This document shows positions 4,031 to 48,320 of a DNA stretch of 48,320 nucleotides, one piece after another. The translations under genes and the position numbers were made by a program. The notes under the pieces were generated by a model. That model was not told where the DNA came from. It was given only the letters and a program-made list of their open reading frames with translations, and did not search any database. This DNA comes from a virus, in the IMG/VR virus record IMGVR_UViG_3300004481_000332, positions 1 to 48,320 of that record; one strand, written 5' to 3'. Every line of letters starts with the position of its first letter. Position 1 is the first letter of the stretch.

Positions 4031-4270
4031 ATGAAATTAAGAGTATGGTGGAAACCTCAGATTCCAATGAATAATTCGTTTTATGTAGATGTTAAAACAA
4101 TAAAAGAAGCAAAAAAGATATTAGATGTTTTAGCAGAATATGATTCATTCCAATTAGATAATAAAATTAAACCGGATTATTCAAATGCAGGTGGATTAGA
4201 AGAATTTAAAGACAAAGAATGGAATGAATGGGAAAGTGAAAATGGAGAATCTATCGATGAAATAGAATAA
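4031..4270 (+). CDS. Hypothetical early protein (79 aa from ATG 4031; the track gives a GTG start at 3971)
   Basis: GTG 3971 sits inside the 3' arm of hairpin B. ATG 4031 lies 51 nt after the hairpin, matching the 34-51 nt hairpin-to-ATG spacing of the other copies. Confidence 0.55.
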   Translation: MKLRVWWKPQIPMNNSFYVDVKTIKEAKKILDVLAEYDSFQLDNKIKPDYSNAGGLEEFKDKEWNEWESENGESIDEIE

Positions 4271-4316
4271 GCCGTTAACAAAGACTCCGTGATAAAATAG
4301 CAATCACGGATTTTTT
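4268..4316 (+). terminator. Stop-box copy C (TAAGCCGTT) plus intrinsic terminator ending the 3-gene cassette
   Basis: TAAGCCGTT at 4268-4276. Stem TCCGTGAT (4286-4293) with ATCACGGA (4303-4310), followed by TTTTTT at 4311-4316. Confidence 0.8.
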
Positions 4317-4347
4317 GTGTGTTTAAAAGAACAAGATTGGAGAATTG

Positions 4348-4803
4348 TTAATTTTCTTTCTTGATAACAATTCTTATCGGTTCAGATTTATCACCGGAGA
4401 GGTAGTTTTTATCTTCCCATTCAGCATTATTTTTCAACCAGAAGATTAATCCTGCAGTATTCTGTTTTGAATTCACGAGTCTGTCTTCAATAAACTGTCT
4501 TACTTTTTCTTTCGCGTCTTCAATCATCTTTTTGTATTGTTTCTTTCCCTGAAATTGCAAAAGTGTCTTCCGTGTCAACCCTAAGTACATTGCAAGTCCA
4601 GTCATTGTATATACTTTATCTTTCTTATTACATTCGTCGAAGTACTTATCAAACAGCATTTGCAGTTCTTCAGGAGAGTTAAATAAACACTTCCGGCGGA
4701 TTTTACCTCTATCTTGTTTTTCCAGTTGTTTCAATCTAGAATTGTCAATTATTGGAATTGATTTGTCTGCCTTATTAAGTTTTGTATTCTTGTCTTTTGA
4801 CAT
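4348..4803 (-). CDS. terS: Terminase small subunit (gp3-like DNA-packaging protein)
   Basis: 151 aa. PEELQMLFDKYFDEC, an HTH-like segment YTMTGLAMYLGLTRKTLLQF, and C-terminal AGLIFWLKNNAEWEDK. This matches the small-terminase family pattern as I remember it. Confidence 0.8.
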   Translation of the reverse strand: MSKDKNTKLNKADKSIPIIDNSRLKQLEKQDRGKIRRKCLFNSPEELQMLFDKYFDECNKKDKVYTMTGLAMYLGLTRKTLLQFQGKKQYKKMIEDAKEKVRQFIEDRLVNSKQNTAGLIFWLKNNAEWEDKNYLSGDKSEPIRIVIKKEN

Positions 4804-4827
4804 CTGAGCAAAATTAAAAGACCAATA

Positions 4828-5199
4828 CTACATTTGTAGCTGGCCTTCTAGCTTCTTTATTGATTCTGTTTGCGGTTGATTTGTGCAGAAAAACTTCTTT
4901 GCAAGTTGTCCTAACTCACATTTGCAATACTTCTTTTCTGCTCTGTTTAGACCTGTATCTTTGCAGATTCTGCATTTAAAGCCTTGATTTTCATTTTCAT
5001 AATCTCTCAACCATTCCTCCGTTAACGGAACGTTAAAGATTATCTTATATCCGACTGCCTTTCCCATTTTATTCTTGATCTGACGGACAATAACATAGAA
5101 TTTACTGTGTGTGTAAAACTCATCATATTCCTTCATAGAGACATCTTTCACAACATATCTCATTTCAACTTCGTGTTCTTTGTTATAAACTGTTGGCAT
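4828..5199 (-). CDS. Hypothetical Cys-rich (zinc-binding?) protein, 123 aa
   Basis: ATG at 5199 lies 1 nt after the upstream stop (5201-5203); the track's longer start overlaps the upstream gene. Contains CRICKDTG...CKCELG. Confidence 0.55.
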   Translation of the reverse strand: MPTVYNKEHEVEMRYVVKDVSMKEYDEFYTHSKFYVIVRQIKNKMGKAVGYKIIFNVPLTEEWLRDYENENQGFKCRICKDTGLNRAEKKYCKCELGQLAKKFFCTNQPQTESIKKLEGQLQM

Positions 5200-5200
5200 A

Positions 5201-6034
5201 TTATTGTAGTAAATTGTTTTGTTTAAGATATTCGAATTCCTCTTGTTCGTTTTTATGTTTTGTGTAATTGGTATGTGCAATTTCTAAATCTTTAAAAGAT
5301 TCAAATCCTCTATCTAAGAATTTATGCAATGACCATTTGTATTTGAAAAAACAAGATTCGTCCGTTAAAATAGTATTATAATTCTCAATGGTCTTTGTAA
5401 TCTCTCCCATCGAATATCCGTCACGGATTCGACCATTGATCGCTCTTTTCATTTTATCCGTGATCTTCTTGTGCTGTATTATATTTTGACTATTCCAAGC
5501 TTCTAAGATTATTGAATAAAGAACTGTCTTTGCTGATCTCGGCTCTGCCGGATCAGTATAAATATCTTTTTTAATTTCTTTATTATTTAATTTTATTATA
5601 TACGAGTCTTTTTGTGGACTATCTAAGTCCACCGTATGGACTATCTTTTGTAGTATTCCAAAAGATAATCCACTGGATGGACTATCTTTTTTCTTTTTAC
5701 TTTCATAATAATCCGTGTTCAGTTTCCAGATATCTACAAGTTCATAAACGGTTATCGGTTTTGTTTTTCCTTGTTTAGATCCAACGGACTTAATCCATCC
5801 GTGTTCTAGAAGATATTTTAAAGAGATTGAAACTTGACCATTACTCATTCCTGTTCTTTTTACCAACTCAGAACGTGATAACCAGCAACGATTGTTCGGG
5901 CCAGCCGTTCTTTTCATTTCAATATACAATGCTCGATCATATAATGATGAATGATTCAATATGTAGTTCGGAACGATGGTAAAGTATTTCCAGTCGTCTG
6001 AGTTATTGATAAGTTGGAAATTGTTATCTTCCAT
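5201..6034 (-). CDS. Winged-helix DNA-binding protein, replication-organiser/DnaD-like (putative)
   Basis: 277 aa. N-terminal wHTH-like segment SRSELVKRTGMSNGQVSISLKYLLEHGWI. The C-terminal part (WNSQNIIQHKKIT...KYKWSLHKFL) resembles the conserved phage replication-protein C-terminus. Adjacent to an AT-rich iteron region. Confidence 0.4.
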   Translation of the reverse strand: MEDNNFQLINNSDDWKYFTIVPNYILNHSSLYDRALYIEMKRTAGPNNRCWLSRSELVKRTGMSNGQVSISLKYLLEHGWIKSVGSKQGKTKPITVYELVDIWKLNTDYYESKKKKDSPSSGLSFGILQKIVHTVDLDSPQKDSYIIKLNNKEIKKDIYTDPAEPRSAKTVLYSIILEAWNSQNIIQHKKITDKMKRAINGRIRDGYSMGEITKTIENYNTILTDESCFFKYKWSLHKFLDRGFESFKDLEIAHTNYTKHKNEQEEFEYLKQNNLLQ

Positions 6035-6743: not shown

Positions 6744-6787
6744 CCGTTAACTTGATTCTTAATTGTCTAGATCAATCGAGACCCAAG
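6740..6787 (+). repeat. Stop-box/hairpin element copy D (TTAGCCGTT, degenerate stem)
   Basis: TTAGCCGTT at 6740-6748. The 5' arm CTTGATTCT is conserved, but pairing with AGACCCAAG (6779-6787) has 2 mismatches. Confidence 0.45.
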
Positions 6788-6828
6788 ATTATCCGCTAAT
6801 AAGTGAGTCAAGCACTTTGACAATATAT

Positions 6829-7146
6829 ATGGATAAAGATCAAGCACAATTTTTAGCAGAGAGTTTAATGAAAGAACACGGACTCGGAAAGAAATGGAAA
6901 TTCAAATGGATCCGTTCTTATCATAAATACGGACAATGTGATTGGATGTTCAAAGAGATCCGTTTATCAAAACCCTTTGTTAAAGTAAACGAAGAGTTCG
7001 AAGTTAGAAACACAATTTTACACGAACTTGCACACGCAAAGTGTCATAAGCACGGACACAACAAATTCTGGAAAGCGTGGTGTATAAAACTCGGAGCCAG
7101 ACCTTGCAGAATCGATACTTGTGCAAATAGACCAAGAAAAGATTAG
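6829..7146 (+). CDS. SprT-like zinc metalloprotease domain protein
   Basis: ILHELAHAKCHKHGHNKFWKAWCIKLG (HExxH plus a downstream His). ATG 6829 is preferred over the track's TTG 6763, which lies inside element D. Confidence 0.65.
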   Translation: MDKDQAQFLAESLMKEHGLGKKWKFKWIRSYHKYGQCDWMFKEIRLSKPFVKVNEEFEVRNTILHELAHAKCHKHGHNKFWKAWCIKLGARPCRIDTCANRPRKD

Positions 7147-7846: not shown

Positions 7847-8326
7847 ATGTACATTATTTTAAAGGGAACAGAGGTTTTAGCAAAAAAATCTTCTCATAAG
7901 AAAGCAATTGCTTGGATGGAAGAGAATAACTATAAAGAAGGAGATGTGCAAGTAATGACTGATAAAAAATATAATAAAAATCAAGGAATTGATGCTGGAT
8001 CAGAAACGAGAGTCAAAAAAATGACAAAAAATGAATATAAACAGAAAAAAGATCTTGCTTATTCTAAAGTTCCGAAATCAAATCCTGTTCATACAACATC
8101 TCTTTGCAATACTGAAGAGGGTGTTAAAGAAGAAATTCAAAAAAATGAAGGAATTTTAGCTGGAATTGTTCAACATAAAAAAGGAGGATTTTACGGAATT
8201 TATTGGATAGAGAAAGAAAGTCCAGAAGTAAAATCAGACAACGAATCAAAAGAAACAAAAGAACCAGAATTACCAGAAGAATCCGATGGTCTTGAAAATG
8301 ACGAAGAAACTGTTGAAGAATTATAA
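7847..8326 (+). CDS. Hypothetical protein with an acidic C-terminus (159 aa)
   Basis: Long ORF with no recognisable motif. Confidence 0.6.
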   Translation: MYIILKGTEVLAKKSSHKKAIAWMEENNYKEGDVQVMTDKKYNKNQGIDAGSETRVKKMTKNEYKQKKDLAYSKVPKSNPVHTTSLCNTEEGVKEEIQKNEGILAGIVQHKKGGFYGIYWIEKESPEVKSDNESKETKEPELPEESDGLENDEETVEEL

Positions 8327-8332
8327 TAAAAG

Positions 8333-8373
8333 TTAGGCAGAGATTTATCAATTCGAATTAGATCTCTGCCTAA
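8333..8373 (+). promoter_or_regulatory. 12-bp stem-loop between genes (processing, terminator or translational element)
   Basis: TTAGGCAGAGAT (8333-8344) pairs perfectly with ATCTCTGCCTAA (8362-8373). It ends 9 nt before ATG 8383 and has no U-run. Confidence 0.5.
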
Positions 8374-8382
8374 TAAATCGCT

Positions 8383-9156
8383 ATGGAAAAGAATAAAACA
8401 AAAAAATCAAAAGTCGAAGAAACAACGGTTGAACCAATCAAACCTGCATTGTTTGATGTTCATTTTGTTGGAACAGATCCAGCAATTTCTTTAAAGCTTG
8501 GTAATGTGATTACCAAAGACGAATGTTATATGAAGCAATTCACTCGCAAAGCAGACAAAAAGAAAATCACAAAATGGATTCTTACTGATGAAGCAGTTCA
8601 GAAACTCGTTGACGCAGGAAACTTAATTAAAACAGAAGTTTCTAAACCATTGATGGAACCGACACCAGGGAACAGACACGAATATGCAGTCTGGGTGACT
8701 GTTAAGTGTTTATCAAAACTTAACGAACAAGGATTCTGCATTCACGGACAATACGAAGGAAAGACTGCAATGTTGGGTGAAGCAAACGACGACAATCTAA
8801 GAATCGGAAGTGGCTATCCATTAATTATGGCAGAGAAGAGAGGATTCCACAGAGCAGTGATTGCACATCTTAAACTGGATAATGTTTATTCAGAAGAAGA
8901 GTCTGAAGATTTCAAAGAGACAGAAGCAACACCAATTATAAGTCCAGAAGAGTTTGCAAAGGTTAAACCATTTGTAGAGAAATTAATGAATGCAACAACA
9001 ACGAAATCGTTAAATCCAATTGCACGAGAAATCAAAACAAAAACGAAAGAGCTTTCAAAAGCACAGTATGATTATCTCAAAGAATTGTATTATACACAAA
9101 GACGCAGAGTCGATAAAGCGTTTACGGAAACAAAAAACAATGCCAACGGGAATTAA
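8383..9156 (+). CDS. Hypothetical DNA-binding / possible single-strand annealing protein
   Basis: 257 aa. The call rests only on gene context (upstream of the exonuclease) and a weak MAEKRGFHRAV segment reminiscent of annealase families. Confidence 0.25.
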   Translation: MEKNKTKKSKVEETTVEPIKPALFDVHFVGTDPAISLKLGNVITKDECYMKQFTRKADKKKITKWILTDEAVQKLVDAGNLIKTEVSKPLMEPTPGNRHEYAVWVTVKCLSKLNEQGFCIHGQYEGKTAMLGEANDDNLRIGSGYPLIMAEKRGFHRAVIAHLKLDNVYSEEESEDFKETEATPIISPEEFAKVKPFVEKLMNATTTKSLNPIAREIKTKTKELSKAQYDYLKELYYTQRRRVDKAFTETKNNANGN

Positions 9157-9751
9157 AGGATTTCAAATCGGACATAAAACCAATGTAGGTAAACATTGGA
9201 AAATTAAGGATACTTCTAATGTTGGTAAGTATTGGAAGAATAAACAATTCACTAAAGAACATAAAAGAAAACTCGGACTTGTTTGGAAAGGAAGAAAACA
9301 TTCTTTAAAATCAAAACAACAAATTAGTAAATCTCATTTCGGTTTGAAATTGTCGAAAGACGTAAAACAAAAGATTAGTAAAGCACATCTTGGAAAAAAA
9401 TCATCGTTCGAAACTAGAAAAAAGATGAGTTTATCACATAAAGGATCTAAAAGTTATTTGTGGAAGGGTGGAATTTCTCCACTTCATAAACAAATAAGAT
9501 TATGTTTTGAATCACGACAATGGAGATCCGATGTTTTTACAAGAGATAACTTTACTTGTCAAATGTGTGGAAAACGCGGATATAAATTAAATGCACATCA
9601 TCTTAAGCCATTTAATAAGATTGTTGAAGAATATAAAATTAAATCAATTCAAGAAGCTTTAAATTGTGATGAATTATGGAACATTAATAATGGTCAAACA
9701 TTGTGCCATAATTGTCATAAGAAGACAAATACATATGCAAGATCGAATTAA
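9140..9751 (+). CDS. Free-standing HNH homing endonuclease with NUMOD3-like repeats
   Basis: Repeats KEHKRKLG / KSKQQISKSH / KQKISKAHLGKK / TRKKMSLSHKG. HNH core CQMCG...NAHHLKPF...NGQTLCHNCHKKT. ATG 9140 (MPTGIKGF) overlaps the previous gene by 17 nt. Confidence 0.85.
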   Translation: MPTGIKGFQIGHKTNVGKHWKIKDTSNVGKYWKNKQFTKEHKRKLGLVWKGRKHSLKSKQQISKSHFGLKLSKDVKQKISKAHLGKKSSFETRKKMSLSHKGSKSYLWKGGISPLHKQIRLCFESRQWRSDVFTRDNFTCQMCGKRGYKLNAHHLKPFNKIVEEYKIKSIQEALNCDELWNINNGQTLCHNCHKKTNTYARSN

Positions 9752-11721: not shown

Positions 11722-11848
11722 AAAACAATTAAATATCTTTGACATTTTACGAAAGAATCGAGCAAAAACAAAAAATGAAAAACTTTGGTGGAAAATGTGG
11801 GCTAAAGAAAACATTTTTGTTAAAGATAAAAGAAAAATAAAGTTATGA
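11708..11848 (+). CDS. Hypothetical small basic protein (46 aa)
   Basis: Hand translation: MKRIRKQLNIFDILRKNRAKTKNEKLWWKMWAKENIFVKDKRKIKL. ATGA overlap with the kinase gene. Confidence 0.35.
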   Translation: MKRIRKQLNIFDILRKNRAKTKNEKLWWKMWAKENIFVKDKRKIKL

Positions 11849-12393
11849 TAATCATTATTGAAGGAGTTGATTTGGGAGGAAAAACAACAGTAGTCGAAGA
11901 TCTCAAAAGATATTACGGAAACGGTGCTGTTGTCTTTAAGAATCCAATCAAACCAAGATCAAAACACGATCGAGAAAGTATTTTTATTGCATATACTGTA
12001 ATGTTTGGAATGGCTTTAAAAGACGAATTCAAGAACAAACTTGTCATCTTTGATCGTGCATATCCTTCAGAGATGGTTTATTCAAAGGTCAAGAGGAACT
12101 ATGAAGCAATGAACGATCTTCGTTGGTGGAAGTTTGATTCAAACATAGCAAACGAGGATGTCTTAATGGTATATTGTTATGCACCATTGACTAAATTGAC
12201 AGAGAGATTGAAAGTAAGAGGTGATGATTATGTCAAGAAAAACGAACTTGAAAAACTTGTAAAGAGATATGATAGATTTTTAAAGAAGACAAAATTGCTT
12301 CATCTTAAAATAAGATCGATAGATACAAGAGAACATAATCTTCTAAAGATCTTAGATTTTCTTCAAAAACATAAGAACGTAATACCGTACTAA
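11845..12393 (+). CDS. Thymidylate-kinase-like dNMP kinase
   Basis: P-loop IIIEGVDLGGKTT and the DRAYPSEMVYS motif (the DRxxxSxxAY type). Confidence 0.75.
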   Translation: MIIIIEGVDLGGKTTVVEDLKRYYGNGAVVFKNPIKPRSKHDRESIFIAYTVMFGMALKDEFKNKLVIFDRAYPSEMVYSKVKRNYEAMNDLRWWKFDSNIANEDVLMVYCYAPLTKLTERLKVRGDDYVKKNELEKLVKRYDRFLKKTKLLHLKIRSIDTREHNLLKILDFLQKHKNVIPY

Positions 12394-12394
12394 T

Positions 12395-12526
12395 ATGAGC
12401 AATGCTAAACAAACACTATTAAAAGAAGCAAGAAAACTTAGAGCTAAAGCATATAAGAAAAGAATTGAAGCAGACAGACTCGAAAAAGAGGCAGAAGAAT
12501 TAGAAAAACAAGCATATGAACATAAC
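12395..12526 (+). CDS. Hypothetical small coiled-coil protein (43 aa)
   Basis: Hand translation: MSNAKQTLLKEARKLRAKAYKKRIEADRLEKEAEELEKQAYEHN. Confidence 0.35.
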
Positions 12527-13112
12527 TAATTTCAACAATCTTAAACCAACAAAAGATAGACTCCTCGAGATGTTAGAACTGCAAAAAGAATTGCAAAAGC
12601 TTTATGAGATGCCAGAATCCCTAGATCTTTCGATAGCAAAAGACCAAGATCTTCTCAGATGGTTAGCTTGGTGTGTCACAGAAGAAACAGGAGAAGCAAT
12701 GGAATGCTACAATAATGGTATGGGAGATGAACATCTTCTTGATGAAGTTGCAGACAGCACTCATTTCTTTTTAGAACTAATTAATCTATCCGGATTAAGA
12801 TTGAAGTTCACAAACCAGATCGGGATTTTTGATAGCTTGTATTTGATCTTCACAAAAGATATGAAGAATCCGCTTGAGGCACACTCCGAATTCATTTGTG
12901 CTCTTGCTTTAGCAATCAACGTATTAAAAAATCGAAAATGGAGAAAAATCAATCTTCTGACAAACGAAGATGTCTTTTACAAAAAACTAGAAACAGCAGT
13001 CGAGCTGTTTTTTGTTTTTCTTAAATCATTAAACATAACAGACAATCTTCTGTGGTCAGCATTCACGAGAAAATATCAAGTGAATAAATTCAGGAGAGAA
13101 TCTAACTATTAA
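12516..13112 (+). CDS. All-alpha NTP pyrophosphohydrolase (dimeric dUTPase / T4 gp56 dCTPase-like)
   Basis: TEETGEAMECY, LLDEVADSTHFFLELINL and C-terminal KYQVNKFRRESNY resemble T4 gp56 ELVDIFHFVLNMF and LKNKENFARQDRGY (recalled from memory). Confidence 0.6.
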   Translation: MNITNFNNLKPTKDRLLEMLELQKELQKLYEMPESLDLSIAKDQDLLRWLAWCVTEETGEAMECYNNGMGDEHLLDEVADSTHFFLELINLSGLRLKFTNQIGIFDSLYLIFTKDMKNPLEAHSEFICALALAINVLKNRKWRKINLLTNEDVFYKKLETAVELFFVFLKSLNITDNLLWSAFTRKYQVNKFRRESNY

Positions 13113-13113
13113 T

Positions 13114-13812
13114 ATGAGAATCTTTAAATCGTTCGACGAGATGCACAAAGAACTGACACGAGAGCTAACACATAACGGTTTGATTGTAAATGTTGAAACA
13201 GTTCAGGACAAAGATGTCAAAGGAATGTCTGAATATACAACAAAAGAACTGATCGGATATTCTTTTCTTGTCAGAGACACGTCAAAGAAAAGTGAATGGT
13301 TAAAATCTCTTGGATATAATTTAGATTGGGCAAAAGAAGAATTCGAAGAAAGAGTCAGTCCGTTTCCAATTAATCCAGGACGAGCTTGGGAAAGACGAGA
13401 AAAGGCTTGGAGTGAATTTATTCATAATGGAAAGTTTAGCTATACATATAATGAAAGGATCCGAGAACAACTAAACGAAATTATTGATCTTTTGAACACA
13501 AAACCTCATTCTAGACAAGCAATCATAACAATTTACGATCAACACAGTGATTTAAAGAACGCAGGAGGTCAGCGGAGGATTCCTTGCAGTATGTATTACC
13601 AGTTCTTCATCCGTGAAGGTAAATTACACCTAATTTATAACATAAGAAGCAATGATTTTAAAGAACACTTCCCATATGATGTATGGTTAGCAGCCGAGAT
13701 GCAAAAATATGTTGCTGATAGAAATAGAACTGTTAGCGGTAAATGCGGAGACTTCATTTACTTTTGTGGATCTTTACATACTTTTATGAGAGACTCACAA
13801 GAGATGTTTTAA
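13114..13812 (+). CDS. Thymidylate-synthase-fold pyrimidine C5 transferase, dCMP hydroxymethylase-like
   Basis: SRQAIITIYD and RIPCSMYYQFFIREGKLHLIYNIRSNDFKEHFPYDVW align without gaps to ThyA PCHAFFQF...[16 protein letters not shown]. Asp replaces Asn177. RSND and GSLH match T4 gp42. Confidence 0.8.
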   Translation: MRIFKSFDEMHKELTRELTHNGLIVNVETVQDKDVKGMSEYTTKELIGYSFLVRDTSKKSEWLKSLGYNLDWAKEEFEERVSPFPINPGRAWERREKAWSEFIHNGKFSYTYNERIREQLNEIIDLLNTKPHSRQAIITIYDQHSDLKNAGGQRRIPCSMYYQFFIREGKLHLIYNIRSNDFKEHFPYDVWLAAEMQKYVADRNRTVSGKCGDFIYFCGSLHTFMRDSQEMF

Positions 13813-13943: not shown

Positions 13944-14258
13944 ATGAGAGAAAAAGAAATTCAATATACAATTATTCAATATTTAGAATATCAGAAGAAT
14001 TTATATTTCATTAGAACGAATTCTTTTGCTGGATCATTCTTACGAAGAAACGGTTCTGCTGGATATATTAAAAATAACAAAGCAGGATGTCCAGATATTA
14101 TAGTTTTAAAAAACGGAAGATTCATTGGTCTTGAAGTAAAGACAGACAAAGGAAAACAATCAGATCTTCAAAAAGAAGCAGAAAAACAAATTAAGAATAG
14201 TGGTGGTGAATATTATATTATTAGAAGACTAGAAGACGTTCTTGATATTTTTAAATAA
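13944..14258 (+). CDS. VRR-NUC domain nuclease
   Basis: 104 aa. AGCPDIIVLKNGRFIGLEVKTDKGKQSDLQ matches the GxPD...E-V-K...Q pattern. Confidence 0.75.
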   Translation: MREKEIQYTIIQYLEYQKNLYFIRTNSFAGSFLRRNGSAGYIKNNKAGCPDIIVLKNGRFIGLEVKTDKGKQSDLQKEAEKQIKNSGGEYYIIRRLEDVLDIFK

Positions 14259-14269
14259 TAGTTCTTTAT

Positions 14270-14420
14270 TTCTCGTTCGCTATCCAGGTTAAATCTGCGG
14301 GAGGGGGGCTTTAAATAAAGATGGACTGATTAGAATATGGCTTGTTCCATACAACTCTAATCACATTCAAGCCCGCACGATGTAAATCGCTCCCTTGGGA
14401 GAAACGATAGCGAGCGGGAA
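14270..14420 (+). ncRNA. Structured RNA element (three-way-junction fold) upstream of the high-GC cassette; possible riboregulator
   Basis: 15-bp helix 14270-14284 with 14406-14420 (2 G:U). GCGGG (14297-14301) with CCCGC (14372-14376). Extended hairpin GATTAGA-TATGG...CCATA-TCTAATC (14328-14362). CUCC-CUUG-GGAG tetraloop hairpin (14390-14401). Confidence 0.4.
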
Positions 14421-14468
14421 ATAGGGCGTTATGTGTTCTTTAAAAAGCGAAATTAAAGGAGGTGGCAG

Positions 14469-14738
14469 ATGGCCATTTTAATCGCGCTGTTCTTTTTCTT
14501 CGGTTCTGCGGTTGAGTGGTCGATTGCCACTCTCCGCATCTGGAATATATCCAAGGGACGAACTGGTATCGTAATGCTGATTGTTTTCTGCGAGGAGATG
14601 CTTATGCTCGGCGCAGGAGCTTTGACGGCTTATATCGTTATTAAAACCAATCAGCTTTACCTATTGCCATTTGCGGCAATCGGCGGTTCGTTAGGTGCAG
14701 GATTTTCAATGAAACTTTCTCAAAGGAGGAAAGAATGA
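14469..14738 (+). CDS. Small integral membrane protein (about 3 TM helices; weak resemblance to UPF0316/DUF5698)
   Basis: 89 aa and hydrophobic. AGGAGG lies 6 nt upstream of the ATG. About 48% G+C. Confidence 0.6.
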   Translation: MAILIALFFFFGSAVEWSIATLRIWNISKGRTGIVMLIVFCEEMLMLGAGALTAYIVIKTNQLYLLPFAAIGGSLGAGFSMKLSQRRKE

Positions 14739-15511
14739 TTAAAACGATTCTTTTGCCCGACATTCATTATCCCTATCACAACAAAAAGGCGTGGCTGGTG
14801 GTGTTGAAATTCTTAAGGTGGTTCAAACCGCACACCATTGTTCTGGCGGGGGACGCATTAGAGATGCGCGCTGTGGATCACTGGAAGAGAGAGAAAGGCA
14901 ACCTCAGGCATTTTGAGGGGATACGCTTGCTCCACGACTACGAGCAGTTCATCGAGGATATCCTCGAACCCCTTGAGAAGATTTGCCACAGAGCAAAAAA
15001 GATTTACATGGGGGGCAACCATGAGGTCTTTGCCAACAGGGTCGTTGACCAGAATCCTCAACTTGAGGGGTTGATTGAGCCAGAGAATGCACTCAAGCTC
15101 AAAAAGCGGGGATGGGAATGGATTCCCTATATCGTCAGGGGTAAGCATGGAAGCACCCACAAGGGAATGCTCAAAATCGGCAAGCTGACAGTCATTCATG
15201 GGGAATATACAAATAAATTCCATGCCTCCAAAACGGCTGACTGCTACCTCAAGTCCGTACTCTATTTTCATACCCACGACCTTCAGCTTTTCACCAAAGT
15301 CACGGCAGAAGACCCCTCCGACTATCACACCTGTCAATCCGGCGGCTGCCTTTGCGACAAGAGTCCCCAGTATTTATGGGGAAGACCAAACCGATGGGTT
15401 CATTCCTTTGCCATCCTTTACACGCGCAAAGATGGGCTCTTCAACATCTACACTCCAGTCATCATCAACGGCACCTTCACTTACGCGGGTCGCACCTTTT
15501 CTTGGAAATGA
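14735..15511 (+). CDS. Calcineurin-like metallophosphoesterase
   Basis: Motifs PDIH, AGDALE, GGNHE, IHGE and FHTHD occur in canonical order. ATGA overlap with the membrane-protein gene. 50-60% G+C. Confidence 0.8.
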   Translation: MIKTILLPDIHYPYHNKKAWLVVLKFLRWFKPHTIVLAGDALEMRAVDHWKREKGNLRHFEGIRLLHDYEQFIEDILEPLEKICHRAKKIYMGGNHEVFANRVVDQNPQLEGLIEPENALKLKKRGWEWIPYIVRGKHGSTHKGMLKIGKLTVIHGEYTNKFHASKTADCYLKSVLYFHTHDLQLFTKVTAEDPSDYHTCQSGGCLCDKSPQYLWGRPNRWVHSFAILYTRKDGLFNIYTPVIINGTFTYAGRTFSWK

Positions 15512-15588
15512 ATTTCGCTTCGGCTTCAGTAGTTGTGCCGAAAACAGCTACTATATTTTATGAAAAAAGAAATAACAATTAACTTAAT

Positions 15589-15615
15589 GCGGTTTTCTTA
15601 AATAAGAAAATCCGC
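15589..15615 (+). terminator. Hairpin after the high-GC cassette (weak terminator candidate)
   Basis: GCGGTTTTCTTA pairs with TAAGAAAATCCGC (one bulge). No clear U-run. Confidence 0.3.
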
Positions 15616-15630
15616 TGAAAAGAAACGAAT

Positions 15631-16137
15631 ATGAAAATAATTAAAAGCAAAATTAAGGAGAATGATGTTTTCCTTGTGCGATGGAAAGCGCGAGAATGGG
15701 ACGACCAAAAAGATTGGTGTTTTGAGGGTTCACTTGTGGCACAAAAAAACGACGAAGGGGAATTTATATTTTATGATACTTTTTGGGGCATTGGGAGACA
15801 CGACAATAAAAGCTGGAAATTTACCGAGATGATGAAAACTTTTAATGTTGAGTATTATTGTAATCTTAACGAACTGGAAAAGATTAGTCATTATGAGTGC
15901 GATTATTATGATGACAAAGATATTTTCCGCCTATCAGACCAACACGGCTGTATGGAAAGTTGCGTTTATCATTATATCAAAAAAGGAACACAAAAAAGCA
16001 AAGAAAAAATACTTTCGGTATTGGGCGAGAATATGAGAAAAGCAAAAAACGAATTAGAAAATAGTGGCAGAGATATAGAAAATATCGCCACAAAAATAAA
16101 AGACGTGGAAAATGGCAATTTAAGTATTTATATCTAA
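15631..16137 (+). CDS. Hypothetical protein (168 aa)
   Basis: Long ORF with no motif. Confidence 0.6.
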   Translation: MKIIKSKIKENDVFLVRWKAREWDDQKDWCFEGSLVAQKNDEGEFIFYDTFWGIGRHDNKSWKFTEMMKTFNVEYYCNLNELEKISHYECDYYDDKDIFRLSDQHGCMESCVYHYIKKGTQKSKEKILSVLGENMRKAKNELENSGRDIENIATKIKDVENGNLSIYI

Positions 16138-17008: not shown

Positions 17009-19330
17009 ATGAGAAAAAAATTCGTAAATGTATATCAAAAATATAATAACGTGATTCTAGTCACCAGAGAGAATGGTATTAGAAAAGATATTGAATATGA
17101 AGGTCAATGGTATTTTTTGATTGACAAGAAAGACAAGAATAAATTGAAAGGAGACTGGTTTGAGAATCTCGAAGACGAGAACGAATATACAAAAGTCTAT
17201 CCAAAGATCCATCGAGATAGAAAAGACGTCATTGAAAGACTTGAAGCAAACGACATCAAAACATATGAGGGAGATCTATCAGTCGTCGATCGATTTCTCA
17301 TCGACAACGATCTTGAACTTGATACCAACCAGAAGACATTGTATTTTGATATTGAAACAAGTGATCGGAAACCAGGAATAAACCCAGGTGAAGAACAGAT
17401 CTTGTCGTTTGCTGGTGTCGACTCTGACAATAAAGAGACATTCTATCTATTGGAAGACGACAACGAAGTTGATCTTTTAAAAAAGATTGTCAAGTTGTTT
17501 GAATCATACGATCTCATTGCTGGTTGGTTCTCGGAGAAGTTTGATCTTGTAGTAATCAAAAAGAGATGTGATCTTCTTGGCGTTCAATTTGATTGTAATA
17601 TCTCAACAGCGATGTTCGATGAGAAAGAGAAAGCAAAACCAACAAAAGTCAATCATATAGATCTGATGAGTAAACTTCAGAAGATCCGATATAGAGACAC
17701 TGAACTGATTAAGAGAGTCAAAGGATTCGGACTAAATGCTGTTGCAAAAGAATTTCTTAGCGAAGAGAAGACAGAAACAAAGGGAACAAGTCTTCAAACA
17801 TTGTATGACGAAGATCCTGAGAGACTTCAAGAATACAATATGCAAGACGCAAGACTCTGTAAAAGACTTGACGAGAAGTTAAGCATCTCTAAACAAGCAT
17901 TAATCGAACAAAGCATTTGTGGAGCAAGAGTCAACGATTATGCAAACTCAAAGAAGCTAGATTTGTTTGTATTACGATTTGCAAATAAGAGAGGTCTTCG
18001 TCTTCCTACTAATATGTTCAAGAGGAAGAGTCTTGAAGACAATCCACAAGTTGGAGCTGATGAGTCTGACAAAAAAGGAAGAAAGAGGGCACTATATGAG
18101 GGTGGATATGTTCTCGATCCGAAAGTCGGTCTCTATAAGAACTTGCATATATTTGATTTCAAGTCTCTTTATCCTTCTATTATAAGAACATTCAATATCA
18201 GTCTTGAAACATTTCTCAGAAAATCTGGCGAGAAGACACACAACAAAGATGAGATCTTCTGCCCAGAAACAAATTGCTACTACAAAAAAGAACCGGCTGG
18301 AGTAATTCCACAGGTTCTTAAATACTTAATTGATGAACGAAACAACATTCGTGGTGGTATTATGAAGACATTAAATCCTAAGTCATTCGAATACCAGAAC
18401 TACTATTATAGACAATATTCATTCAAAGTTTTAGCAAACAGTATGTATGGTGTTCTCGGTGCTGAGTTTGTCAGATACTTCAAAGTCGAGAACGCAGAAT
18501 CAATCACCGGAATGGGACGATGGTTGATCAAGAAAGTTATGGCATTCGCAGAATCAAGAGGATTGAATGTAATCTACTGTGATACAGACTCTGTATTTCT
18601 TACAAGCGAAGATCCTGCATTTATTCCTGAAGACTTTTCAAAAGAGTCAACAGACTATATCAATAAAGTAGTCACAGCAATATGCAACATCGGTGAATCA
18701 GACCTGTTCTTGGATTATAAAGAAACCTGTCCGACGTTCCTGATGGTTGATAAAAAGAGATATGCTTGGACTACGAAAGACGGAGAGATTCAAGCAATGG
18801 GATTAGAAGTTAGGAGACGTGATACTCTCAAGTTCGCAGAGACACAACAAAAGAAATTGTTTGATCTTCTGTTAAAAGAAAACACACCCGTTGAAGAAAT
18901 AAAGAAATGGATTGAAGAACTCAGATCGTTTGTAATGGATAAGCATCTACAAAAAGAAGACGTCACATTATATAAACGTCTCGGTCAAGAGATCGATCAT
19001 TACAAAACATCAAATCCGCAGGTCCGTGTAGCAAAATGGATCCGTGAAAAACAACAGACATCAGAGAAGATCAACCTGTATTCTCAGGGAGCATATATTC
19101 CAATGATCTATGTTGAAGAAGAGTACAATATAAGCAAAGAGACAGGCCAGTCTGTGACTCATCCGGATTTGTACGTCAACGGGTCGTATAGTGCTGAATA
19201 CTACTGGAATACGCCGATCTATGGAATACTCGAGAGAATACTAAAAGCGGCTTATCCTTCAGAAAACTGGGATAATTACTTTATCACGAAAAGAGAACTA
19301 AAAAATAAGCATCAACTGACGCTTATTTAA
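17009..19330 (+). CDS. Family B DNA polymerase with 3'-5' exonuclease domain
   Basis: Exo I YFDIETSD, Exo II-like GWFSEKFDL, Exo III YNMQDARL. Pol motif A DFKSLYPSII, motif B KVLANSMYGVLG, motif C YCDTDSVF. Confidence 0.95.
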   Translation: MRKKFVNVYQKYNNVILVTRENGIRKDIEYEGQWYFLIDKKDKNKLKGDWFENLEDENEYTKVYPKIHRDRKDVIERLEANDIKTYEGDLSVVDRFLIDNDLELDTNQKTLYFDIETSDRKPGINPGEEQILSFAGVDSDNKETFYLLEDDNEVDLLKKIVKLFESYDLIAGWFSEKFDLVVIKKRCDLLGVQFDCNISTAMFDEKEKAKPTKVNHIDLMSKLQKIRYRDTELIKRVKGFGLNAVAKEFLSEEKTETKGTSLQTLYDEDPERLQEYNMQDARLCKRLDEKLSISKQALIEQSICGARVNDYANSKKLDLFVLRFANKRGLRLPTNMFKRKSLEDNPQVGADESDKKGRKRALYEGGYVLDPKVGLYKNLHIFDFKSLYPSIIRTFNISLETFLRKSGEKTHNKDEIFCPETNCYYKKEPAGVIPQVLKYLIDERNNIRGGIMKTLNPKSFEYQNYYYRQYSFKVLANSMYGVLGAEFVRYFKVENAESITGMGRWLIKKVMAFAESRGLNVIYCDTDSVFLTSEDPAFIPEDFSKESTDYINKVVTAICNIGESDLFLDYKETCPTFLMVDKKRYAWTTKDGEIQAMGLEVRRRDTLKFAETQQKKLFDLLLKENTPVEEIKKWIEELRSFVMDKHLQKEDVTLYKRLGQEIDHYKTSNPQVRVAKWIREKQQTSEKINLYSQGAYIPMIYVEEEYNISKETGQSVTHPDLYVNGSYSAEYYWNTPIYGILERILKAAYPSENWDNYFITKRELKNKHQLTLI

Positions 19331-47443: not shown

Positions 47444-47761
47444 TTATTCCACCGTCTCTGATTTGTCAAATCTGGATAATGATTTATTAACTTGTATTTC
47501 GAACCAATCTTTGATCAAAGAAAGTCCATTGACCGTTCCACGACCAAACATAAATTGTTCAAGATTTTGAGCACTCATTCCCATAAACTTCAATTGCTCA
47601 AAAATCATTCGATCTATTTCTTCTTTAAAGAACGTCTTATAAAAATACTCTGCAGCAGTCGATCTTGCCAACTTTTCTTCGTCTTTAAGAGTGTCTTCAG
47701 TAATACTGATCGATGCTAATTGTTCTCTCATTATCTCCGCTGATTTATTTATGTCTGTCAT
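47444..47761 (-). CDS. Hypothetical head-module protein (105 aa)
   Basis: ATGA overlap with the portal stop. Confidence 0.5.
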   Translation of the reverse strand: MTDINKSAEIMREQLASISITEDTLKDEEKLARSTAAEYFYKTFFKEEIDRMIFEQLKFMGMSAQNLEQFMFGRGTVNGLSLIKDWFEIQVNKSLSRFDKSETVE

Positions 47762-48320
47762 ACTTCAGATTTAAGCACCGATCCTCCTGGCAGTGATACT
47801 TTAGGTGAAACGACTCTTTGATTCTTCTTATCGTCGATTTTGGGCTGTGGCGCCTCGTTTGGACCGCCCATGACAAACATCTTACCAGGATCTTCATCCC
47901 ACGTTTGAGCAAATCTCTCGTGGATCCAATCTGGGCTAAAGCTAAGTCCAATTGCTAAACCGTCCTGAAGCATCTGTCCAAAGAGTATCTTATTTAATTC
48001 ACTCGATCTCTTTTCTTTTGGAACAATAGAAACATTCCAGATAAATTGAAATCTCTTGACTTCTTGCGGATTGATCATTATGATCGAAGTCGGATATCCT
48101 GTTTGTTTTTGCAGATCTTCTTCTGCTTTCTTGATTTCTGTCGCAGCAGGAATCTTGTCTGTCGGTATGATCAATCTCATTCCCTGTCCCTTTCCCTTAA
48201 CCATTCTTGAACTCGAGACTGATCGATATCGTTTTGTTAGTTCCTTCTTCGCAGCATCAAAACTATTTTCAACTGGATCAAACCAGTTCTTAAGTAAGAG
48301 TGCCAAACGTTTCATCACCA
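47758..48320 (-). CDS. Portal protein, C-terminal part (continues from 1..1455 through the junction; 48241-48320 duplicates 1-80)
   Basis: The ORF is open to the window edge and in frame with the open minus-strand frame of 1..1455. Confidence 0.7.
   Translation of the reverse strand, partial: VMKRLALLLKNWFDPVENSFDAAKKELTKRYRSVSSSRMVKGKGQGMRLIIPTDKIPAATEIKKAEEDLQKQTGYPTSIIMINPQEVKRFQFIWNVSIVPKEKRSSELNKILFGQMLQDGLAIGLSFSPDWIHERFAQTWDEDPGKMFVMGGPNEAPQPKIDDKKNQRVVSPKVSLPGGSVLKSEV
48241..48320. repeat. Terminal direct repeat, second copy of 1-80
   Basis: Identical 80-mer at both window ends. Confidence 0.95.

Follow-up and report, generated by a model that had tools for sequence, protein, structure and literature searches.

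A stretch of 48,320 nucleotides of viral DNA (IMG/VR record IMGVR_UViG_3300004481_000332, positions 1 to 48,320; hereafter the window, meaning this entire stretch) carries three adjacent plus-strand genes for a P-loop kinase, an all-alpha NTP pyrophosphatase and an enzyme with the thymidylate synthase (TS) fold. Together these genes probably constitute a nucleotide-pool rewriting module by which a 5-substituted cytosine, 5-hydroxymethylcytosine (5hmC) or 5-methylcytosine (5mC), replaces cytosine in the phage DNA. An earlier note, made from the letters of this DNA, had proposed such a replacement, and the proposal is supported by an Asp at the position of Asn177 in Escherichia coli ThyA, by the failure of the TS-fold protein at ThyA cutoffs, by its resemblance to the folds of cytosine enzymes, by the membership of the pyrophosphatase in PF08761, by linkage of the genes in related phages and by published MetaGPA experiments. 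From the folds, family memberships, active-site residues and linkage that we observed, we infer the substrates, the products and the extent of replacement. The three open reading frames (ORFs) lie where the earlier note had placed them (Table 1), and all motifs quoted there were found in the translations: EGVDLGGKTT and DRAYPSE in the kinase; EETGEAME, DEVADSTHFFLEL and the C-terminal KYQVNKFRRESNY in the pyrophosphatase; and CSMYYQFF...RSND...PYD and GSLHTF in the TS-fold protein.

The TS-fold protein matched Pfam PF00303 at 49.4 bits (E = 4.5e-13; gathering cutoff, 24.3) and also PHROG 160, and an AlphaFold2 (AF2) model built from 87 homologs reached a pLDDT of 96.7. Foldseek comparison of this model with the PDB, which the earlier note had recommended, returned TS-fold structures with a probability of 1.0 and TMq values of 0.7-0.81. 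The CMP hydroxymethylase MilA ranked first (TMq 0.81), followed by the HY126 dCMP hydroxylase AfhB (TMq 0.73-0.75) and then by ordinary thymidylate synthases (~0.7). MilA, an enzyme of mildiomycin biosynthesis, is a cytosine-nucleotide hydroxymethylase with Asp177, but it differs from the window enzyme in being bacterial, in its length of ~320 aa, in its ribonucleotide substrate and in its Asp143 (PMC13326640), with an identity of only ~20%. T4 gp42 dCMP hydroxymethylase was the best match when the PDB was searched with the single sequence, and AfhB (9iqu/9iqc; 65.7 bits) was the best match of the family profile. Since gp42, AfhB and MilA disagree, there is no consistent nearest class, and nearest structure failed as a means of settling the product; the earlier note had rightly left the exact chemistry open.

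Searches against NCBIfam indicated that the TS-fold enzyme is not a ThyA, as it failed all ThyA equivalog cutoffs by far. The best model, that for short archaeal TS, gave 57.6 bits against a cutoff of 174.55, and the other five ThyA models gave 31-43 bits (maximum, 42.8) against cutoffs of 108-405. The short archaeal model ends at the same point as the window protein, which has 8 residues past GSLHTF compared with ~55 more in ThyA, so that the ThyA-type cofactor-closing C-terminal segment is absent. The earlier note had correctly seen that the protein stops soon after this motif and had regarded it as short, but the family is 226-245 aa long, which indicates that the short C terminus is native rather than a truncation.

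A HMMER alignment to gp42 and MAFFT alignments reproduced the gapless hand alignment to E. coli ThyA in the earlier note, equating Cys158 with C146, R178-S179 with R166-S167, D181 with D169 and D189 with N177; D189 also aligns with D179 of gp42. In the following, residues of TS-fold enzymes carry E. coli ThyA numbers, except for Cys158 and Asp189 of the window enzyme. The window enzyme retains C146, R166, S167, D169, W80, Y94, E58 and H207. We examined conservation in two sets, one of 119 homologs from a k-mer/HMMER search and one of 147 representatives for which 1.84 billion proteins had been scanned exhaustively with HMMER, with residues counted over ungapped representatives; at E <= 1e-30, the exhaustive scan yielded 260 clusters (50% identity). 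C146, R166, S167, W80 and Y94 were invariant in both sets, and Ser or Thr takes the place of H147 in the family. Asp177, which the earlier note had recognised in the single protein, was present without exception (119/119 homologs and 141/141 ungapped representatives).

Position 177 governs base choice in this fold: Asn selects dUMP and Asp selects dCMP, and an N177D substitution switches TS to dCMP (PMC8670742). The substrate of the TS-fold enzyme should therefore be dCMP. TS homologs with Asp177 were enriched among the experimentally C-modified phage contigs of the MetaGPA study, and contigs bearing them were shown experimentally to carry modified cytosine (PMC8670742). These metavirome homologs resemble the window system in Asp177, in the replacement of His147 and in linkage to genes for an all-alpha NTP pyrophosphatase and a polymerase, with a dCMP deaminase gene frequently among those linked; the MetaGPA papers do not name the TS subfamilies that they tested. 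The earlier note had taken Asp177 as the hallmark of gp42. This residue does occur in gp42, but the Xp12 dCMP methylase has it as well, as do flavin-dependent 5-hydroxy-dCMP synthases (PMC13326640), and it thus does not single out hydroxymethylases.

Other active-site positions separate the window enzyme from the flavin-dependent class. We considered whether the enzyme is a flavin-dependent dCMP 5-hydroxylase of the RB69 gp48/HY126 AfhB type, which would give DNA with 5-hydroxycytosine. AfhB was the best PDB match of the family profile and second by fold, and the 5-hydroxy-dCMP synthases (RB69 gp48, DLP3 gp80 and HY126 AfhB) share with the window enzyme a short TS fold of ~234 aa, the same C-terminal end and Asp177. 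However, D169N occurs in every flavin-dependent 5-hydroxy-dCMP synthase tested (PMC13326640), whereas Asp169 was conserved in 119/119 homologs and 142/143 representatives, which places the window enzyme outside the 5-hydroxylase class and disfavours 5-hydroxycytosine. The synthases combine Asn169 with Glu143 (RSQN in AfhB), while the window enzyme has Asp169 with Arg143 (RSND), and no arabinosyltransferase, glycosyltransferase or sugar-nucleotide genes were found by family scans of the complete genome. We consequently regard a 5-hydroxylase as improbable.

The position corresponding to Leu143 of ThyA is occupied by Arg in 119/119 homologs and 146/146 representatives, and that of G173 by a near-invariant His (120/141 representatives). 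Both L143 and G173 of ThyA lie within 6 Å of C5 (PMC13326640). A published rule holds that a hydrophobic residue at position 143 marks methylases and an acidic residue marks hydroxymethylases (PMC13326640). Arg143 is neither, so that the window enzyme falls outside both published classes and does not have the acidic residue of the gp42 type. The Xp12 methylase has Asn143, and the rule is therefore not strict; our attempt to use it for deciding between methyl and hydroxymethyl products failed on both counts. On the basis of these alignments, Asp177/Asp169/Arg143/His173 is a fourth active-site pattern among TS homologs.

The pyrophosphatase matched PF08761 (dUTPase_2) over its full length, with 28.6 bits (cutoff, 22.9) across profile positions 2-162, which bears out the proposed relationship to dimeric dUTPases. 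T4 gp56 scored 25.4 bits in the same model, and the description "gp56-like dCTPase" in the earlier note thus holds at the family level only: BLASTP against gp56 was not significant (E = 0.95), and the order of motifs differs as well. In 24 subfamily members we found the conserved motifs EExxE, ExxDxxHF and a C-terminal K-x3-N-x2-R-x4-Y, corresponding to residues E56, E57, E60, E77, D80, H83-F84, K186, N190, R193 and Y198. Similarity to single-domain MazG proteins is seen in the N-terminal half, and the C-terminal motif can be aligned with the Campylobacter jejuni dUTPase. Two candidate markers of base specificity were rejected. The His-Phe pair, which was once proposed as a uracil selector and is carried by dimeric dUTPases (PMC5608427), is common to gp56 and uracil-specific enzymes, and the motif-1 position four residues past the conserved Gln is variable within the subfamily. 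We propose that the pyrophosphatase is a d(C/U)TPase that would remove dCTP and supply dCMP.

The kinase matched phrog_761 at 8.5e-23 and passed the cutoff of Pfam Thymidylate_kin (PF02223; 29.3 bits; cutoff, 27), and it contains a P-loop of the GxxGxGK(S/T)T type (EGVDLGGKTT) and the DR motif FDRAYPSE. Its best PDB match was SPbeta YorR (2axp; 6.9e-7), and T4 gp1 (1DEK/1DEL) was not among its PDB matches at E <= 1. A score of 34.3 against the NCBIfam dTMP kinase equivalog cutoff of 83.25 indicates that it is not a canonical Tmk, and the lack of a detectable relationship to gp1 makes it an analog rather than a homolog of that enzyme. We propose that it phosphorylates 5-substituted dCMP. The comparison of the trio with T4 in the earlier note therefore stands for functional roles and not for the kinase, which is TMPK/YorR-like. 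In T4, the same three roles are filled by the dCTPase/dUTPase gp56, the dCMP hydroxymethylase gp42 and the dNMP kinase gp1, with Asp177 in gp42 and a polymerase of its own. Unlike the window, T4 has these genes dispersed, a kinase from an unrelated family and glucosyltransferases, and unlike the window enzyme, gp42 has Asp at position 143 and a C terminus that is longer by ~20 residues.

Linkage of these genes is conserved well beyond the window, on numerous unrelated phage backbones. We sampled 80 IMG/VR loci with the TS family from at least 574 matching contigs. In 69 of the 80, the TS gene and a gene of the pyrophosphatase subfamily share a strand and are no more than 6 kb apart, and several of the others are truncated upstream. 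The order kinase-pyrophosphatase-TS is kept in the related loci L003, L004, L005, L006 and L007, including L006, a phage of another type that has an SPP1-type portal. Kinase orthologs occupy the same position in L003, L005, L006 and L007 and in Muddy (gp49) and P744 (ORF025). A polymerase gene usually comes after the trio in the close relatives L003, L004, L005 and L007, with the family B polymerase following the TS gene directly or past one or two short ORFs in L003, L005 and L007, and 54 of the 80 loci have a large polymerase-length ORF cluster on the downstream side of the TS gene. A VRR-NUC nuclease gene follows the trio in the window, and the earlier note had suggested that its product could act on unmodified DNA. 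This suggestion found no support, and we rejected the nuclease as part of the system, since the loci L003-L007 that we inspected do not conserve this gene as a neighbour. At L003 and L007, and in three IMG/VR ORF clusters, we observed uracil-DNA-glycosylase-superfamily genes one or two genes upstream of the kinase (Table 1); none was detected in the window.

The module also occurs in cultured phages. Among 50,697 isolate phage records, the pyrophosphatase subfamily matched only 10 Clostridium perfringens phages (the CPD4 group), and the same 10 phages hold the closest isolate TS homologs. A four-gene arrangement of kinase, dUTPase_2, second TS-fold protein and Asp177-Arg143 TS is present in Muddy (gp49-46), KimJongPhill (gp75-78), P744 (ORF025-028) and CPD4 (CPD4_72-75), and the TS enzymes of Muddy, KimJongPhill and P744 all have Arg143, His173 and Asp177. 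Judged from these genes, the DNA of Muddy, KimJongPhill, P744 and CPD4 may contain modified cytosine. A nucleotide search of the window region against the 50,697 records found no match. We also observed a more distant, T4-like Asp177 TS homolog, with Gly173 and no Arg143, in Enterococcus phage nattely, two genes from an annotated beta-glucosyltransferase, an arrangement that suggests glucosylated hydroxymethylcytosine in its Enterococcus phage group.

The homologs in cultured phages are labelled as "thymidylate synthase", "dUTPase" and "thymidylate kinase" in databases, and such labels on the Muddy, P744 and C. perfringens proteins describe a housekeeping trio made up of an ordinary dUMP-to-dTMP thymidylate synthase, an ordinary dUTPase and a thymidylate kinase, which would raise dTTP and leave the DNA canonical. 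The TMPK-like kinase and the His-Phe pair that the pyrophosphatase shares with dimeric dUTPases agree with this explanation, as does the avoidance of CATG and GGCC in the window. Against it are the unbroken presence of Asp where ThyA has Asn177, given that N177D mutants prefer dCMP, the scores far under all ThyA equivalog cutoffs and the cytosine specificity of the enzymes with the nearest solved folds. In addition, the neighbourhoods of related loci contained a Thy1 (ThyX) family match, a hint that dTMP there comes from a source other than the Asp177 enzyme. We thus regard the housekeeping explanation as unlikely, although three points count against replacement of cytosine in the phage DNA. 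First, the pyrophosphatase could be a plain dUTPase, as its base choice is not readable from sequence. Second, our literature search found no measured DNA modification reported for CPD4-group phages, Muddy or P744. Third, the 4-mers CATG (observed/expected ratio, 0.41), GGCC (0.55) and GTAC (0.68) are depleted in the whole window, while GATC (0.99) and GCGC (1.11) are not, and the 6-mers AATATT and GATATC are likewise under-represented; avoidance of CATG and GGCC is unexpected under a fully protective cytosine modification and is a mild argument against one.

Near the TS gene in 55 of the 80 loci we observed a second, very divergent TS-fold ORF of ~250-350 aa, typically ~1.1 kb upstream, unannotated and with no Pfam match. 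An AF2 model of this ORF had a pLDDT of 88.6, and its top Foldseek matches were all TS-fold proteins (AfhB at 2e-7, then MilA and T4 dCH). In the IMG/VR loci this ORF and the TMPK-like kinase are nearly mutually exclusive (both in 4, kinase only in 12, ORF only in 51). The second paralog is absent from the window and from its closest relatives.

The family-wide substitutions next to C5 raise the prospect of an undescribed TS-fold chemistry in the Arg143/His173 subfamily, with another C5 substituent or another cofactor or mechanism, carried out alone or with the second TS-fold paralog. Of the two ThyA residues no more than 6 Å from C5 (PMC13326640), L143 is always replaced by Arg and G173 by a near-invariant His, the subfamily is about equidistant from all characterised classes, and the cryptic second TS-fold gene accompanies most of the sampled loci. 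On the other side, all residues of the standard methylene-transfer mechanism are retained, a Pfam scan found no further candidate modification enzymes in the window, and the second paralog is missing there. This explanation seems to us to have little, though some, probability. If it were true, a so far undescribed cytosine derivative would be present in the DNA of the window phage and of its many relatives, within a subfamily that spans at least 260 clusters at 50% identity and at least 574 IMG/VR contigs and includes a member in the cultured phage Muddy.

Considering these findings together, we favour a pathway in which the pyrophosphatase would convert dCTP, and probably dCDP and dUTP as well, into the monophosphate by hydrolysis, which would keep plain cytosine out of new DNA and feed dCMP forward. 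The TS-fold enzyme would then bind dCMP, with Asp189 (position 177 of ThyA) reading the N3/N4 face of cytosine, Cys158 would attack C6, and methylene-tetrahydrofolate would donate a one-carbon unit to C5. The resulting exocyclic methylene intermediate would react either with water, which we slightly favour, to give 5-hydroxymethyl-dCMP or with hydride to give 5-methyl-dCMP. The TMPK-like kinase would convert the product to the diphosphate and a host NDP kinase would convert this to the triphosphate, for incorporation by the family B polymerase of the phage itself.

Our slight preference for 5hmC as the product is tentative and short of an even chance. T4 gp42 was the best single-sequence match and MilA hydroxymethylase the best fold match, the ~50-residue ThyA-type C terminus that the Xp12 methylase keeps is absent, residue 143 is charged rather than hydrophobic (rule in PMC13326640), and dihydrofolate reductase (DHFR) is absent from the complete genome. 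In one related locus, L010 (gut phage DP SC_6_H4_2017; MT121964), the TS gene is followed at once by two genes, one for a cytidylyltransferase resembling IspD (94 bits) and one for a LicD phospho-alcohol transferase (134.5 bits). These enzymes would need a hydroxyl acceptor, which argues for a hydroxymethyl product, and they could carry out a phospho-alcohol hypermodification of the C5 hydroxyl. Upstream in L010 we also observed a gene of the trimeric-dUTPase fold and one for a 330-aa protein with a dUTPase_2 C terminus.

A 5mC product is possible and somewhat less likely. Short archaeal TS, the best NCBIfam match, shares its end point with the window enzyme, the proven Xp12 methylase has a polar Asn at position 143, and 30 of the 80 related loci have a dCMP deaminase gene beside the TS gene, as do KimJongPhill and P744. 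Characterised phages seldom have undecorated 5hmC. In an NEB screen, five of seven deaminase-linked Asp177 TS homologs made 5-methyl-dCMP (bioRxiv 10.1101/2024.12.05.627091). The Xp12 pathway resembles the window system in a TS homolog with Asp177, D169 and a non-hydrophobic residue 143 and in an undecorated modification made at the nucleotide level. It differs in that the Xp12 enzyme is 289 aa long, with G173 and a full ThyA-type C terminus, and is encoded beside DHFR and dCMP deaminase genes, whereas the window enzyme lacks this C terminus and its genome lacks both genes.

The same deaminase linkage bears on an explanation in which 5-methyl-dCMP serves mainly as a bypass to thymidylate via deamination, as proposed for Xp12, and not for replacement of cytosine. 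Such a mechanism has been published (bioRxiv 10.1101/2024.12.05.627091), and deaminase genes beside the TS genes of the 30 loci, KimJongPhill and P744 would suit it. The complete genome in the window encodes no deaminase, however, Xp12 itself has its cytosine fully replaced, and exclusion of dCTP is what the linked pyrophosphatase suggests. We consider this bypass very unlikely, and replacement of cytosine by a 5-substituted cytosine is still the explanation that we prefer.

The absence of certain genes in the window can be interpreted because an exact 80-bp direct repeat at positions 1-80 and 48241-48320 indicates that the window is a circularly assembled, complete genome of ~48,240 bp; an ORF at 47758-48318 (minus strand) runs on across the circular junction. 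In agreement with the earlier note, which had recognised no glycosyltransferase, a Pfam scan of the other 56 window ORFs detected no glycosyltransferase, DNA methyltransferase, carbamoyltransferase, deaminase, DHFR or ThyX. With no decoration enzyme detected in a complete genome, the modified base probably stays undecorated, barring the action of unknown proteins.

The module lies among plus-strand genes that span ~6.1 to 20 kb and encode replication and nucleotide-metabolism functions. Its pyrophosphatase and TS-fold genes are 1 base apart, and a 44-aa ORF, for which a family scan gave no match, overlaps the start of the pyrophosphatase gene. A promoter and terminator scan of 10.5-14.5 kb found nothing exceeding the shuffled expectation. 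Elsewhere in the window, an HNH/NUMOD3-like ORF overlaps the start of a PD-(D/E)XK nuclease gene, and Pfam matches at unmapped positions included a P22 gp17-like superinfection-exclusion domain and DUF3008. The G+C content of the segment at 14000-16000 is locally 41.6%, compared with ~33% on both sides, and this segment, which covers a metallophosphoesterase gene and other-frame or opposite-strand ORFs of unusual length, may have been recently acquired.

Table 1. Locations of the module genes and of other features in the window and in related loci (L009, C. perfringens phage CPD4; L092, Mycobacterium phage Muddy; L093, Streptomyces phage KimJongPhill; L094, Yersinia phage P744; L095, Enterococcus phage nattely)
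Feature	Location	Strand	Basis or remark
TMPK/YorR-type P-loop kinase, 182 aa	window 11845..12393	+	Pfam, PHROG and PDB matches
Lysine/glutamate-rich 44-aa ORF bridging genes 1 and 2	window 12395..12529	+	ORF list; module membership uncertain
All-alpha NTP pyrophosphatase, dimeric dUTPase/dCTPase family, 198 aa	window 12516..13112	+	PF08761
Thymidylate-synthase-fold enzyme, 232 aa	window 13114..13812	+	PF00303, AF2, Foldseek
Family B DNA polymerase	window 17009..19330	+	phrog_262, 4.9e-72; associated gene, outside the trio
Second TS-fold ORF	L009:5208-5957 (CPD4_74); L092:2084-2977 (Muddy gp47); L093:1850-2911; L094:2172-3005		
Second TS-fold ORF, further cases	L008:10708-11487; L010:4000-4989 and 4982-5767		
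IspD-like and LicD genes	L010:7154-7909 and 7902-8774		within ~400 bp of the same-family TS gene
Uracil-DNA-glycosylase-superfamily genes	L003:7850-8371; L007:7948-8538		
Asp177 TS homolog and beta-glucosyltransferase region of nattely	L095:2941-3786, 4241-5299		
P22 gp3-type small terminase	window 4348-4803	-	
SprT-like metalloprotease domain	window 6763-7146	+	
HNH/NUMOD3 homing-endonuclease-like ORF	window 9161-9751	+	flanked by the 8383-9156 gene and a PD-(D/E)XK nuclease gene
Metallophosphoesterase gene	window 14735-15511		in the high-G+C segment
Unusually long ORF	window 14858-15337	-	in the high-G+C segment
Unusually long ORF	window 15198-15563	+	in the high-G+C segment

TS homologs that modify dCMP at C5 before replication are known, and the less familiar part of these findings is the Arg143/His173 subfamily, which is widespread. 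If our reading of the module is true, the phage DNA would resist many restriction enzymes and would be misread by methods that assume canonical cytosine. The subfamily and its linked pyrophosphatase are common in viromes and have gone unrecognised in the cultured CPD4 group, P744, KimJongPhill and Muddy; because the module is present in cultured phages, the question is directly testable. The presence of 5mC or 5hmC in these cultured carriers would bear on their host range, restriction evasion, sequencing and engineering, and the Arg143/His173 subfamily could refine the rules by which the product of a TS homolog is predicted from its sequence.

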